19,185 bases of DNA, taken from contig CAWCXJ010000011.1 of assembly GCA_963799485.1 (NCBI GenBank), positions 1-19,185 on the forward strand, read 5' to 3'. This DNA comes from an uncultured Trueperaceae bacterium. Its GTDB lineage: Bacteria > Deinococcota > Deinococci > Deinococcales > Trueperaceae. The notes under the pieces were generated by a model. That model did not search any database. It saw only the letters and a list, made by a program, of their open reading frames with translations, and was not told where the DNA came from. Both the position numbers and the translations under genes were made by a program. Of the stretch, positions 1 to 14,233 are shown in pieces (the stretch's first letter is position 1; each line of letters opens with the position of its first letter).

Positions 1-1
1 T

Positions 2-651
2 TGTGAACACTGGAACGCCCACCTGTTAGCGACCAAACTCATCGAACTGGCGATTGTCACAACGGTATCAAGCGAGACTGTTCGAACCAGGCTAAAAAAA
101 ACAAACTCAAACCTTGGTTGAAAGAGCAATGGTGTATAGCTCCAAAGCAGAGTGCTGAGTTTGTTTGTGCGATGGAAGATGTGCTTGCGGTGTATCACCG
201 ACCCCATGACCCCAAACGTCCGCTGGTATGTTTCGACGAGGGCACAAAACAGTTGACCAAAGAAATGCGTTTAGCTTTACCGACTCGACCTGGCGAGATA
301 GCTAAATACGACTATGAATACGAACGTAACGGGACGGGCAACCTGTTTATGTTTTTCGCGCCTTTAGCGGCTTGGCGGCACGTCAAAGTCACAGAAAGAC
401 GCACCATGATCGATTTTGCACGGTGTATGCGTGACTTAGTTGACATCCATTTTCCCAAAGCCGAGAAGATTATTCTGGTTATGGACAACCTCAACACCCA
501 CAAACTCGCGTCGCTTTACAAAGCTTTTGAAGCTGCTGAAGCAAGACGTATCATCGAAAAGTTAGAACTTCACCACACGCCTAAACACGGTTCCTGGCTC
601 AATATGCGGGCAGGCCCGGAAGGTGCTGTTTTGCCCAAGACGGCAGAGATT
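2..651 (+). pseudogene. IS630 transposase, 5' part (orfA tail plus orfB joined by a -1 frameshift)
   Basis: DDE motifs CFDE and MDN are present. WLNM-AEI is split by 12 extra codons and then by an IS insertion after ATT 649-651. Confidence 0.9.
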
Positions 652-1544
652 AGACCTCCGGCGAAAGTCAAGGAACTTGCAAATCGTGGTTGTAGAGGGC
701 GGCGATAAGGTTAAGCCGAAGACCGAAACGACGTCTTCTATGGCGATAGGTTTCTTTGAGAAGCCGAAAGACTTTAAGCTTGCGAATGACGTGTTCGGCA
801 AGAATACGCTCTTTGGCTAGTACGCGATTATGGGTGTGCTGCTCACAGGTAAGAACTTTGCCGCGCCAACGCTTATGCGGTGTGCGGCTGTTGGGATGGA
901 ACTTAGCGACACCTTGAAAACCGCTATCTGAGAGCAGTTCAGTGTCATCGTGTAAAAGGTGAGCGCAGCGGCTCTGCTCAAGTAGCTTGAAGTCGTGTCG
1001 GCGTCCTTTGCCGTAAGCCGTGCATAAGATACGTCGGCTGCTCTTTTCGACGAATACCTGGCTCTTTTGCGTATGTCGCTTTTTCTTACCCGAGTAGTAA
1101 GCCCGTTGTTTTTTTGGGGCGTTCAACCGGTGACTCGGCAATGTCTACGACTACCACCTCTAGGGTAGGGTCGTCTCTCAAAGCTTTACGTCCCGGTAAC
1201 GAAAATTCACCCGACTTGATGAGTGCGTCTTCGACCCGCTCTATCGTTCGCCGCACGGTACTCTCGTCTACGCTCCAGTCTTCTGACAGATGAAAGTGTG
1301 TCCTATACTCTCGCCAGAACGACAAGGTGAGAACGAGTTGGTCTTCTAAGCCCAGTGACGGCGTTCGGCCTCGTTTCTTCTTTTGCGCCTCTCTTGTTCT
1401 AAGTACTTCTAGCATCTTTCTAAACGTCGCTTGTTTGACGCCGAGTTTGCGCTTGAACTTCTCAGCTGGTAATTCCAAACTTCGTACCGTTTGCGCTCGC
1501 ATCTCTACAGTCTCGCATCTTTAAGCTACTTTCGCCGGAAGTCT
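652..1544 (-). mobile_element. IS5-family (ISL2/IS702-like) insertion sequence, apparently intact, 893 bp
   Basis: 17-bp terminal IRs: AGACCTCCGGCGAAAGT (652-668) and ACTTTCGCCGGAAGTCT (1528-1544), 16/17 match. A 3-bp ATT target duplication lies at 649-651 and 1545-1547. Confidence 0.93.
668..1502 (-). CDS. IS5/ISL2-group transposase expressed via a -1 frameshift (orfA 1086-1502, orfB to 668)
   Basis: orfA has an HTH region and VVVDIAESPVERPKK. The slippery A AAA AAC (T7 at 1109-1115 on +) leads into KQRAYYSGKKKRHTQK..DSGFQG..ERILAEHVIRKLKVF. Confidence 0.9.
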
Positions 1545-1733
1545 ATTGAACTCAGTGTGTTACAGCGGCAATGTCTCAAAGCGCGTATACCTCAGCAGCA
1601 GGCCTTGAACGACAGTCTCAATCTCTGGCAAACGGTTCGCAACACCTCCAAAGCTAAAGTGACCTGGCGCTTTACAACTGAGGACGCACGTATTAAGCTC
1701 CATAGTCTCTATCCGTCAATAGATGTTGGCTGA
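1545..1733 (+). pseudogene. IS630 transposase, 3' fragment
   Basis: IELSVLQRQCLKARIP..WRFTTEDARIKLHSLYPSI is the typical IS630 C-terminus and is contiguous with 643-651 once the IS5 is removed. Confidence 0.88.
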
Positions 1734-1851
1734 ACTACTAGACTTGAGTTTCACCTGCGTCATGCCTTTTTCTAGCAACTCAGCACATGAGATTGTCAAC
1801 AGAGCCTAGGCCCACTAGGGCTGGCCGAAGGTTGCCCGTTCTAGATGCGCT

Positions 1852-2363
1852 GATAGTCAGTCGGTCAAAGCCGGAAGCTCACATGGCAACGGTTTTGATG
1901 GAGCCAAAAGTGTCAACGGCAAGAAAAGACATCTGCTGGTAGACACGCTCGGGTTGGTGTTGTCTGTACTTGTGACCTCTGCCGACGTACCCGAACGTAA
2001 AGGTTTGTCACTGCTTCTGAATCAGGCTAGACCTCATTTGCCGAGGTTTCATCAGCTGTGGCTTGACCGGGGTTACAAAGGCGTTGCCTTCACCAACCGT
2101 GTCCTTTTGTGTTTCGGTATCGTACTCGAGATCGCTACCCGTCGTTACGAAAAAGGCTTCGGCTTACAGGCGCGCCGCTGGGTCGTGGCAAGGACTTTTG
2201 CCTGGTTGGGTAACTACCGCCGACTCAGCAAAGACTACGAAACTTTATCCGCCTCGAGCGAAGCCTTCATCTACCTCGCAAGCTGTGACCTCATCACTAA
2301 GCGCCTTGCTAGAACCAACCGCACCCCTTGGAGAAACCGCTGATCCTATTCCCAAACACCCTC
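1852..2363 (+). pseudogene. 5'-truncated IS5-family (IS1031-like) transposase with right IR
   Basis: In-frame from 1852: DSQSVK..GFDGAKSVNGKKRHLLVDTLG..LDRGY..RRWVVARTFAWLGNYRRLSKDYE, stop 2343. The right end TTCCCAAACACCCTC (to 2363) is followed by TAA. An upstream in-frame TAG lies at 1816. The catalytic E (VVERT) reads A. Confidence 0.85.
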
Positions 2364-3689
2364 TAAGCTATGTGTCACCACCGAGGCGGTTGCCTCACCT
2401 GTTTTCTCAGCCCAGCCAATCAGCCGCGCTGGACTCCAGTCGGCGTGGCGTCGGTGGGCTTTAGGCATGTGCTCGGTGAGCGTGGTGTATCTACCCTTGC
2501 TTCTCGCACCCAATAGGGCTCTGAGATGCGAGGCGATGCGCTTGCCCTGATAGAACACCTCGACGGTTGCCGAAGTGAGGCGCAGTTCTACCGATTGTTT
2601 GGCATGCTGATAGGGAACTGAGTAGTAGTGCCCTTCGACTTCAACGTGATAATCAATATTGACCTTGGCTTTCTTCCAGCTTGCCACCTCGAATCCAGTC
2701 GCTGGCAGCGGCTGCAACGCGGGTTTATCGAGGTCTTCAAAAGCACTCTGGCGGTTTCCGGGAAGCTTTTGAAAAGGCTTAGTATTCAGTTCAGTCAGCA
2801 GTTCTCGCACTGCTTCGTTGGCTTCTCGCAGGCTAAAGAAGGTGCGGTTGCGCAGCGGTGCTAAGATTTGCCTTTCGACAATCTGTACGCCTACCTCGGC
2901 TTTGGCTTTGTCTCTCGGTTTTCTAACCCTGGCGGGTACAACCGCTAAGCCATAATGTGCAGCAAATTCAGCGTAAGCAGGGTTCAGTTCGGGTTCATAG
3001 CGGCAAGCGCTTTTCACACCCGCTTTGAGGTTGGACGGCTTCGCCTCGGCGCAAAGCTGACCGGGCACGACGACTTTAGGGACGCCACCGAAAAACTCCA
3101 GGGCGCGGCGGTGCGATAACAGCCAGTCTTCGCTGCTTTGACTTTGCGTGACTTCGGCGTAGGTGTAGTTGCTTGCACCGAGCACGGCGACGAAGACCTG
3201 CGCCTCTTTCATCTCGCCGCTGGTAGGGTCGGTAATGGATAAGGTGACCCCGGCGTAATCGACGAATAGCTTTGCGCCAGCAATATGGAATTGGCGCATG
3301 GTAACGCTTTGTTTACCTAGCCAAGCTCGGTAGCGGATAGTAAAGGTGGAATACTCGTACCCCGTAGGATGTTGGGCTTTGTATTCCTGCCACAGCAAGA
3401 GCAGGGTGACGCCTTTACGTTGCTTTTCCTTGTGGACGTATTCCCAATCGGGTTCGGGACGCGCCGCTGCGCCTTTGACAGCGAACAATCTCGCCTCCAG
3501 CGCTGCGTCATTCCACTCTTCATTCAGCGGCCACGACAGCCCCGCTGCTTCGGCGCGGCGCAAGTAGTTACTCACGCTACCTTTGCTGAGGTTGCAGCTT
3601 TGGGCAATCTGCCGCTCGCTCAGCTCGCAGGCGTATCTCAGCCTTAGTATCTCTCGGACCTTCCTCATAGACGCTCGCTTTCTCGACAT
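2364..3689 (-). pseudogene. istA: IS21-family transposase IstA, 3'-truncated, second catalytic Asp replaced by a 30-bp insertion; istB absent
   Basis: N-terminal HTH, FVDYAG, VVVP[GQLCAEAKPS]NLK, PRDKAKAE, DYHVEVEGHYYSVP. The frame runs into the IS5 right end at 2363. Tandem TGGTCAA(A)TT end repeats at ~3741-3772 are cut off by IS1595. Confidence 0.9.
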
Positions 3690-3777
3690 GCCTTATCTTG
3701 CAAGCCATGTCTTTGGAGTGTCTCGCGTCGCTACGCTGAGGTGGTCAAATTCGTTAAAACGCTGGTCAATTTATGTA

Positions 3778-4796
3778 GGCTCTTAATGGATTCCAAGGAG
3801 GTAATGTAAAGCCGTTGCAACACGGGCAGAATCACCGTTAGACTCGACGAATGCTGAACATCCAGGTCTTGGTGGATGACGCCAAGTGTTTCGAGGAAGT
3901 GCGCAAGCTACGTTGGCCTGGTGGGGTGAAGTGCCCAAGCTGCGGGTCAGAGAGGATCATCAAGCGAGGCTTTCACAGCACCCAGCCGCATCGCCAACGC
4001 TACGTTTGTCAGGGAAGGTGCTGTGCTCGGTTCGACGATCTTACCGATACCGTCTTTGAAGGCCATCATCAGCCGCTGAAGGTATGGGTGCTGTGCCTGT
4101 ATTTCATGGGTCTGAATCTCTCCAATCGGCAGATTGCCAAAGAGCTAGATTTGAACGAGGATGATGTGCAGCAGATGACCAGCCAGCTTCGTGAGGGCGT
4201 GGTGGCGAAAAAAAGCCTGTCGAGCTATTAGGAACCGTAGAGTGCGATGAGGTGTATATCGTTGCGGGTCACAAGGGACAAGCTCAGGCGGTCAAGAACA
4301 AGGAGCGTCAGGGACGAAGGCGCAGACTCAAAGGAAGCCGCGGAAGAGGCACGCTCGAGAAGGAGAAGCCTCCTGTGCTAGGGATGCTGCAACGCAACGG
4401 TGAGGTAGTGATCAAGATGCTTGCCAACGTAAAGCAGAAGACTATCGCGCCATTCATCAAAAGCTTCATTTCCAGGGGCAGCCTTATCTACACTGACGAG
4501 TACTGCATCTATGACCGCTTGGAGCAGTGGGGATACGAGCACCAAGCCGTCAACCACTCTGCCGGTGAGTATGCCCGCAAGATGGCGATGGCTTTCATGA
4601 GGTGCATGTCAACAGCATTGAGGGCTTCTGGTCGCTACTGCGCTCTTGGCTTCGCCCCCATCGCGGCATCTCGCAAGAAAAGTTGCCACTCTATTTGGGC
4701 TTCTTCGAGTTCGTCCACAACGTTAGGAGCCGGGGTAGGGCACTATTACCGTCCCTCATTGAGGTTCTGGTAGCTCCTTGAAACGCAGGAAGAGCC
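3778..4796 (+). mobile_element. IS1595-family insertion sequence
   Basis: Imperfect 23-bp IRs: GGCTCTTAATGGATTCCAAGGAG (3778-3800) and CTCCTTGAAACGCAGGAAGAGCC (4774-4796), 18/23 match. No target duplication is visible. Confidence 0.88.
3851..4781 (+). pseudogene. IS1595 transposase (Zn ribbon, HTH, DDE) with a programmed -1 frameshift and an extra inactivating frameshift
   Basis: CPSC..C..C and an HTH are present. A7G (4208-4215) shifts into VECDEVY..YTDE. At 4579-4580 the frame breaks (YAR-aa-DGDGFHEVHVNSIEGFWSLLRSWLRPHRG), with the stop at 4779-4781. Confidence 0.85.
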
Positions 4797-5065
4797 AAGC
4801 CGTTATGCTTCATCTGAGTTCTCCTTTGTTTGCCTACGCACTAAACATTCTTCAGGGAGAACTCCTTTTTGCAAAATTGTCGTGTATTTAGCACAGCATC
4901 TCTAAAAACAACCTACCCTCACGCACCGAGTCGGCGCGTCACCGCCGGAAAATGTTCTGAAGAGCATAAGCCGCATCACCCGAGCTTATCCGCTCAGGAT
5001 ATGGCTCGAGCTGCAGTTTTAACTGCTTTTTGTGCAGCCTCACAGCCCGCAAAACACCGCCTGAA

Positions 5066-5105
5066 TGGTAGAATCGTGTGTTTAGAGCGCACAGTCGCTT
5101 GGAGG
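5066..5105 (+). promoter_or_regulatory. gyrA promoter: extended -10, 17-bp palindrome and RBS
   Basis: TGgTAGAAT 5066-5074, GTGTGTTTAGAGCGCAC 5076-5092 and GGAGG 5101-5105. Confidence 0.6.
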
Positions 5106-5110
5106 TCTTT

Positions 5111-7594
<2,484 letters not shown>

Positions 7595-14153: not shown

Positions 14154-14230
<77 letters not shown>

Positions 14231-14233
14231 TTT

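Follow-up and report, generated by a model that had tools for sequence, protein, structure and literature searches.

A 27-nt mini-element splits the second catalytic aspartate codon of an IS21 istA remnant and recurs inside other insertion sequences of a Trueperaceae bacterium

Introduction

Very small dispersed repeats are known from cyanobacteria, where SDR4-6 of Nostoc, reportedly described by Elhai et al. in 2008, are said to measure only 21-27 nt and where SDR5, according to sentences that cite that work, is said to lie precisely inside HIP1. Intragenic REPs, palindromes tagged with GTAG or CGTC, were described by Di Nocera et al. 2013 (PMC3733652), and in the parts of that paper used here they are hairpin repeats of 20-40 nt that lie whole inside open reading frames, are translated, and also occur at gene ends and inside larger palindromes. 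The same parts present the Rickettsia palindromic elements (RPE) as selfish palindromic DNA residing in frame in protein-coding genes (PMC3733652). A further arrangement, in the sections used here of Chenal et al. 2025 (PMC11893778), joins Ssn GIY-YIG nucleases to NTS/SRM hairpin repeats of ~28-30 nt with non-palindromic flanks; the SRM is recognised as single-stranded DNA, and SRMs flank the ssn gene and reach hundreds of copies.

Here we describe a 27-nt repeat, family A, starting from one copy in the window, that is, the whole stretch of 19,185 nt that was analysed, which is contig C11 of a 3.66-Mb assembly in 15 contigs from an uncultured Trueperaceae bacterium. Family A is like the intragenic REPs in its size, in lying whole and translated inside ORFs, and in occurring at gene ends and inside a larger palindrome, but it has no fixed GTAG/CGTC tag, the bases before its initial ACGG being those of the target, its predicted structure is two mini-hairpins and not one stem-loop, and it reaches at most 17 copies per genome, with no RAYT gene flanking it or co-occurring with it and with all copies in the present genome inside IS genes. 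The high copy number and mainly extragenic location typical of REPs are not those of family A. With the SDRs, by their usual definition, it shares very small size (27 nt), near-identical copies, precise insertion at a defined position of a short target, with exact borders and no duplication, and nesting, here in IS and in a GTAG palindrome. Unlike SDRs, it occurs in Deinococcota and not in cyanobacteria, its sequence is unrelated, its copy number is low and its dominant setting is in-frame residence in transposase genes. The likeness to RPEs is that of an in-frame palindromic insert that leaves the gene open, but RPEs are several times longer than 27 nt and reside in the housekeeping genes of a bacterium that lives inside cells, whereas family A here sits in IS. 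As to the Ssn system, the size and the predicted hairpin form are similar, but no copy of family A, nor of the four further families (B-E) described below, adjoins a small GIY-YIG gene here. In-frame REPs, RPEs and SDRs are already known. Family A is set apart from them by its predicted build of two mini-hairpins, by low copy number, by having neither a tag nor an associated partner gene, by its concentration in transposase genes, and by the company of several families, each with a length divisible by three.

Results

The window and its pile of IS remnants

Positions 1-4800 of the window are a pile of IS remnants, with the following features:

118-708, plus strand: 5' part of an IS630-type transposase gene (Pfam DDE_3)
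607-642, plus strand: 36-nt mini-element of family B in the IS630-type transposase, between SWLNM and AEI (Pfam DDE_3)
668-1502, minus strand: IS5/DDE_Tnp_4-type element interrupting the IS630 gene (Pfam DDE_Tnp_4, HTH_Tnp_4)
1491-1733: 3' part of the IS630-type gene, the continuation being shown by an intact 276-aa copy on contig C9
1803-1844, minus strand: 42-nt mini-element of family E in a short ORF (1787-1942), upstream of the DDE_Tnp_1 fragment
1954-2343, plus strand: DDE_Tnp_1 transposase fragment abutting the truncated 3' end of istA (Pfam DDE_Tnp_1, DDE_Tnp_1_2)
2346-3689, minus strand: istA remnant of an IS21-family element, 447 aa (Pfam, homologs and PDB alignment)
3033-3062, plus strand: the 30 nt singled out by an earlier note on this DNA, consisting of the mini-element, junction base 3034 and flanking target bases
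3035-3061, plus strand: 27-nt mini-element of family A, ACGGCTTCGCCTCGGCGCAAAGCTGAC, with 0 mismatches to the family pattern and absent from the X2 allele (see below)
3851-4773: IS1595-type gene

A full-length gyrA-like ORF of 838 aa follows at 5078-7594, so the IS cluster adjoins ordinary chromosomal genes. Further along, at 14197-14231, 35 nt are common to two places on contig C4 and look like a putative tRNA 3' end (TTCGAATC T-loop).

The istA remnant

The product of the istA remnant matches Sigma70_r4_2/HTH, rve (29.8 bits) and Mu-transpos_C_2 (1.6e-19) in Pfam, the rve score staying below the cut-off of 32.6 because of the insert. An HTH, an rve/RNase-H core and a Mu-type C-terminal barrel, together with homologs of up to 90% identity, identify it as an IstA. 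At 447 aa it is shorter than its homologs (486-541 aa), which continue beyond residue 442; ~70 C-terminal residues are missing and istA homology stops near 2360. A full-length istA followed by istB is not what the window holds, and no istB was found in the whole assembly, where the IstB_IS21 matches are weak AAA+ cross-hits of 22-29 bits only; the one other trace of istA in the assembly is a 39-aa fragment. With its istA truncated at the 3' end and no istB, the element is defective in more than one way, and the window's istA is dead for these reasons besides the insert.

The DDE triad of IS5376 IstA, whose structure has been solved, consists of D124, D187 and E233, and mutants are nearly inactive, as stated in the part of that paper relied on here (PMC10122671). 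In the window's istA the triad is incomplete: the equivalents of D124 (first Asp, in VDYAG) and E233 (Glu, in KAKAE) are retained, while the second Asp, which aligns with D187 in the PDB alignment, is gone, its codon being split and lost.

Extent of the insert

At the insert site the minus-strand ORF at 2346-3689 reads VVVPGQLCAEAKPSNLKAGV. The motif runs as VVV-PDNLK without extra residues in all 12 aligned protein homologs (61-91% identical), and CCN GAY AAY is uninterrupted in 11 of 11 istA DNA homologs found in other genomes of the Trueperaceae. In run X2, one contig aligns to 2700-3078 with 3 other letters and with 27 letters absent inside 3034-3061, and reads GAGGTTGT and then CGGGCAC across the site. 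It represents the empty allele, with the GAC codon intact, and is ~99% identical to the window (3 differences in ~350 nt); the contigs of runs X3 and X5 do not span the insert. Run X1, possibly the sample of the window itself, contains the filled form of istA.

What took place is an insertion of 27 nt (3035-3061) within GAC, the codon of the second DDE Asp, together with a T-to-G change at 3034, the base directly 5' of ACGG, which is G in the window and T in the empty allele. The borders are exact, a target-site duplication is absent, and the Asp is replaced by ten residues. The earlier note had claimed extra residues in the IstA motif and the replacement of the catalytic Asp; the protein homologs, the DNA homologs and the X2 allele bear out the former, and the splitting of the D187-equivalent GAC codon the latter. 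Its insert of 30 bp is indeed an insertion, but the size has to be corrected to a net gain of 27 nt with one substitution beside it.

The earlier note also saw a hairpin, and the GCGAAGC that it placed on the minus strand is there. A hairpin is predicted on the plus strand (-5.5 kcal/mol), but not one of a stability beyond chance, with a z-score of -0.73 and 43 of 200 shuffled sequences folding as well; the minus strand gave a z-score of 0.00. Hairpin stability was considered as evidence for the element and rejected, the z-scores being ordinary throughout (-0.73 to +0.65). A literature search returned nothing usable on GCGAAGC repeats or on IS motif definitions.

Family A in the genome

The insert is far from single-copy. 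The canonical sequence of family A is ACGGCTTCGCCTCGGCGCTTCGCTGAA (27 nt), which is predicted to form two mini stem-loops, GGC-NNN-GCC followed by TCGGCG-NNN-CGCTGA. The search for relatives that had been suggested from the sequence proved productive: the pattern ACGGC-NNN-GCCTCGGCGC-NNN-GCTGA has 12 exact matches in the genome and none when it is read backwards, and with 5 looser variants the family amounts to 17 copies at ~8 sites:

istA (IS21), window
IS3-family OrfB, 7 copies
IS4-like fragment, 3 copies (no hit in Pfam), named from a motif read as Y(2)R(3)E(6)K
IS701-like gene (Pfam DDE_5)
IS1 gene
degenerate IS3-like stretch on contig C13, two sites
contig C9, a pair of copies

All 17 copies lie inside IS elements; repeats of at least 300 bp make up 8.5% of the genome, yet all ~8 sites are in IS. 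The same 27-mer in ~8 unrelated contexts, together with filled/empty pairs at 99% identity or more, shows a dispersed repeat that behaves as mobile. Clustering of short repeats by k-mers gave one large noise cluster. A CRISPR origin was also considered and rejected, as a simple spaced-repeat scan detected no array in the assembly.

The loops vary (TTC, AAA, TAC, TGC) while the stems are fixed; the fold of the stems is no better in energy than that of shuffled sequences, and variation is found in the loops only. Across all sites the target ends in YGT or YGG and ACGG comes next, and the first bases are the target's. With a length divisible by three, and with five of six frames stop-free in the canonical copy by hand translation, copies can persist in reading frames; at least five translations occur in ORFs, namely TASPRRFAE, R(L/Q)(R/S)LGA(S/A)L, FSEAPRRSR, QRSAEA(K/L)P and, in the window, QLCAEAKP. 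The window copy has AAA as its second loop, not TTC or TGC, and C as its final base, and is the most diverged of the pattern-matching copies, which fits decay in a dead gene. Family A is identical at 27 of 27 positions between IS4-like copies that are 78-79% identical elsewhere.

Further families of mini-inserts

The second insert that the earlier note had pointed to, at 607-642, is genuine and belongs to another family, with both filled and empty paralogs. This family, B, is 36 nt long and is represented in the genome by six copies, which lie in IS630 and IS1 contexts; it was found in 4 of 127 other Trueperaceae genomes, and 3 of these are among the 5 other same-genus genomes searched. Families C (27 nt), D (42 nt) and E (42 nt), like A and B, have lengths that are multiples of three, and every copy of B, C, D and E that was examined lies in IS sequence. 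The family-E copy of the window matches, at 87% over 39 of 42 nt, a copy with clean filled and empty IS1 paralogs; relatives of it occur in IS1 genes after SFSKSDE and at C13:404781.

Family C is identical at 25-27 of 27 positions between IS1 copies whose identity outside the insert is 64-80%. Whether a site is filled or empty does not track IS1 similarity, and the same site is filled in diverged paralogs. Family B follows HHSD in each of two diverged IS3 genes, which belong to two genomes. Single IS1-type genes with three to four mini-inserts were seen at C9:88600-90200 and C9:121300-122900, carrying C, D and E in the one and E, C, an A-like variant and B in the other. A 61-nt variant of family B (C9:157176-157717, C4:145000-145035) looks like the 36-nt element with ~25 additional internal bases; its length is not divisible by three, and it may be a mini-element nested in a mini-element.

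Filled and empty sites, and tolerance of the inserts

In the IS3-family gene, no empty copy was found within the genome, and the comparison was made with other genomes: all three same-genus matches covering the site (72-76% identical) read CAR A|AY GGC TAC TGC GAR, with the bar marking the insertion point. Removing the 27 nt restores PWQNGYCESFN; the insert sits in the Asn codon and no base is duplicated or lost. From the Asp of CDNG to the Glu of CESF there are 35 residues without the insert (hand count), which is the DD(35)E spacing and places the IS3 insert 4 residues before the catalytic Glu. In an IS256 of the related genome OY759346.1 (G193), an empty and a filled copy (loci L049 and L053) could be compared over 1337 aligned nt; they show 2 mismatches, and both fall at the junction on the ACGG side (GGT to CGG). 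Besides the 27-nt difference, the alignment of this pair, 1379 columns in all, has a further 15 gap columns. IS1 paralogs provide clean filled/empty pairs for family A as well as for B, C, D and E.

Six of the IS3 copies are near-identical and have an identical whole ORF of 309 aa, the remaining one being diverged and broken. G193 has one empty copy of its IS256 and 7-8 filled ones, in which the open frames measure 389-436 aa, and the IS630 that bears family B has the intact 276-aa copy on C9. Insert-bearing IS3, IS256 and IS630 have apparently multiplied while carrying the insert, although trans-mobilisation from copies since lost may have spread them. As the multi-copy IS3 and IS256 keep whole frames with their inserts, these are tolerated and not generally lethal, which does not bear out the suggestion in the earlier note that such insertions kill transposases. 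Its other suggestion, of tiny mobile palindromes accumulating in dead IS, holds for the mobile behaviour of a dispersed repeat and not for mere build-up in dead IS, so that its interpretation as a whole is partly supported.

Position relative to catalytic residues

Of the 15 sites that could be placed, eight are no more than 5 residues away from a DDE residue, the catalytic positions of all families except IstA being taken from generally known family motifs:

family A: IS21, second Asp (distance 0); IS3, 4 before the DD(35)E Glu
family A: IS4-like, directly after the Y(2)R(3)E(6)K Glu; IS1, 5 after IER
family B: IS630, 2 before the Glu; IS630-like gene, 3 after
family B: IS3 at HHSD, 1-2 after the second Asp, two genomes
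family C: IS1, 2 after the first Asp

A bias to catalytic motifs is suggestive only, since the tally of 8 in 15 was made post hoc and, outside IstA, on positions taken from such motifs.

Distribution in other genomes

A narrower form of the family-A pattern, searched in one genome per species (185,579 species), was found in two other genomes, both of Trueperaceae: OY759346.1 and Truepera sp. CROMO_A_191. Among 200 sampled other genomes of the order, one had family A. The three species genomes hold 17, 7 and ~8 copies, 17 being the maximum.

In that Truepera genome, and in metagenome contigs that resemble it, the repeat is also found outside IS: in the signal peptide of a solute-binding protein, just after rpoC and at the end (C-terminus) of a GNAT gene, besides an IS3 gene, an IS1634-like gene and a position among short tandem repeats. 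In four of these loci (L012, L104, L110, L118), 2-3 head-to-tail copies with a period of 27 lie just upstream of the GTPase domain of lepA and read in frame as repeats of QRSAEAKP(Y/C). In four others (L003, L073, L120, L121) the repeat occupies the loop of a palindrome starting with GTAG (GTAGGGGCGAAC ... GTTCGCCC), and thus forms a small repeat within what resembles a classical GTAG-tagged REP; such a position would fit insertion into extruded hairpins. Runs of AGTATTC-type heptamers were seen near family A in the same four loci. The pattern scan of metagenomes returned 56 loci (44 distinct), many of them GC-rich chance or convergent matches, for example to a DUF1501 motif, and for this reason no context counts were taken from it.

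Candidate mobilising genes were also surveyed. Co-occurrence of Y1_Tnp (IS200/RAYT) genes with family A was not seen: G016, with 11 matches, lacks family A, and G193, in which family A is present, carries Y1_Tnp only as fragments with stops. No A-like sequence was found near Y1_Tnp genes, and no informative repeats around the single-copy Y1 gene. Near small GIY-YIG genes, no copy of families A-E was found in four genomes, and G193 has family A without a small GIY-YIG gene.

Discussion

Taken together, we consider it probable that the insert in istA is a decayed copy of family A, a 27-nt non-autonomous dispersed repeat that is carried by IS and inserted by a structure-specific enzyme acting in trans. 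The repeat lands after 5'-YGT or YGG, precisely and without duplication, with an occasional base change at the junction, and its copies can ride along as the host IS multiplies or moves between genomes. Insertion would act on single-stranded or hairpin DNA, in a manner perhaps like that of REP, SDR or IS200/IS605-type elements. The restriction to IS here would be due mainly to IS being tolerant, amplifying and horizontally moving carriers, and the hit on the catalytic Asp would be one outcome of insertion before AC in GAC, AAC and TAC codons, not its purpose. The IS21 element, whether disabled already before the insertion or only later, happened to lose its Asp. Several findings sit uneasily with this explanation: no mobilising enzyme emerged among the Y1_Tnp and small GIY-YIG candidates, the junction substitutions (GT to GG in istA, GGT to CGG in IS256) are unexpected for clean peel-and-paste, hairpin energies are ordinary and copy numbers are low, unlike typical REPs. 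Moreover, the inserts are far better conserved than their flanks and the filled and empty states are independent of IS1 similarity, and carrier effects may not fully account for the IS-only sites.

The exclusive presence in IS of all 17 family-A copies of this genome and of all examined copies of B-E, the closeness of 8 among 15 placeable sites to a DDE residue (at most 5 residues away) and the filling of the same site in diverged paralogs are what would be expected of inserts aimed at, or selected in, transposase genes beside catalytic residues, by IS-specialised mini-elements or an anti-IS process; the elements could be hyperparasites living in IS genes, or the resulting dominant-negative or down-tuned transposases could benefit the host. 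We find this improbable, because whole ORFs in the multi-copy, insert-bearing IS3 and IS256 argue against killing, family A lies in host genes and in palindromes between genes in related genomes, 7 of the 15 placeable sites are away from catalytic residues, the tally has the limits given above, and dominant negatives come far more easily by point mutations. In its boldest form, which is unlikely in our judgement, the idea would be that Trueperaceae are home to a guild of hairpin mini-elements, 27-42 nt long, frame-neutral and of at least five families, which are specialised for IS transposase genes, enter preferentially beside DDE residues, revisit the same codon in diverged paralogs and tune or poison the transposase, as hyperparasites or as host anti-IS tags, by an insertion chemistry without target duplication that is not tied to known REP/Ssn enzymes. 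The recurrence at one site could also come from templated patch repair or gene conversion, in which short patches are copied from existing copies by template switching or break repair without any element-specific transposition, the conserved DNA of the motifs being the microhomology by which inserts move between diverged IS paralogs. Both of the two IS256 mismatches in 1337 nt lie at the junction, istA has its T-to-G change, an identical insert occurs at the identical site in paralogs only 64-80% identical, and the IS256 target has GCTGA beside the element's own GCTGA end. We nevertheless hold copying of this kind to be a poor prospect, since the sites in unrelated IS families have no common flanking homology beyond YGK, the events in IS3 and IS1 are precise to the base and the flanks at family-C inserts are no more alike than the rest. 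Readings by targeting or selection and by gene conversion were both ranked below simple carriage by IS.

A known enzyme could be the source of the insertions, family A being then the REP of a Y1 HUH transposase or the cognate hairpin of a small ssDNA nuclease of the GIY-YIG type. Seven Y1_Tnp matches, of which five are full length, and a small GIY-YIG ORF are present in the genome, and the repeat itself is a predicted 27-nt hairpin that inserts after a short motif without target duplication; intragenic REPs are known (PMC3733652, in the parts used here), and Ssn nucleases pair with ~30-nt hairpin repeats (PMC11893778, likewise). The failure of either gene to co-occur with or adjoin the repeats, the lack of a fixed GTAG/CGTC tag and the low copy number make this very doubtful. 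That the ten residues are a native, lineage-specific loop of IstA or that the likeness to other copies is due to chance has negligible probability: the open reading frame alone speaks for a native loop, against an allele 99% identical without the insert and 11 of 11 DNA homologs without it, and the same 27-mer is found in unrelated genes.

The present case shows that IS elements can themselves be colonised by smaller repeats of 27-42 nt, which are invisible to gene callers because the reading frame is kept. The filled/empty pairs map where DDE transposases (IS3, IS256, IS1, IS630) accept 9-14 extra residues, and some of these positions are close to the active site, only a few residues off. Such maps are of use in engineering transposases and in telling live IS copies from dead ones. 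Should the bias to catalytic motifs be true, it would amount to a new level of conflict, or of regulation, among mobile elements. The lineage is radiation-resistant and known for unusual DNA repair, and in it the manner of insertion, with no duplication, a changed junction base and no known partner enzyme, is a puzzle of its own.
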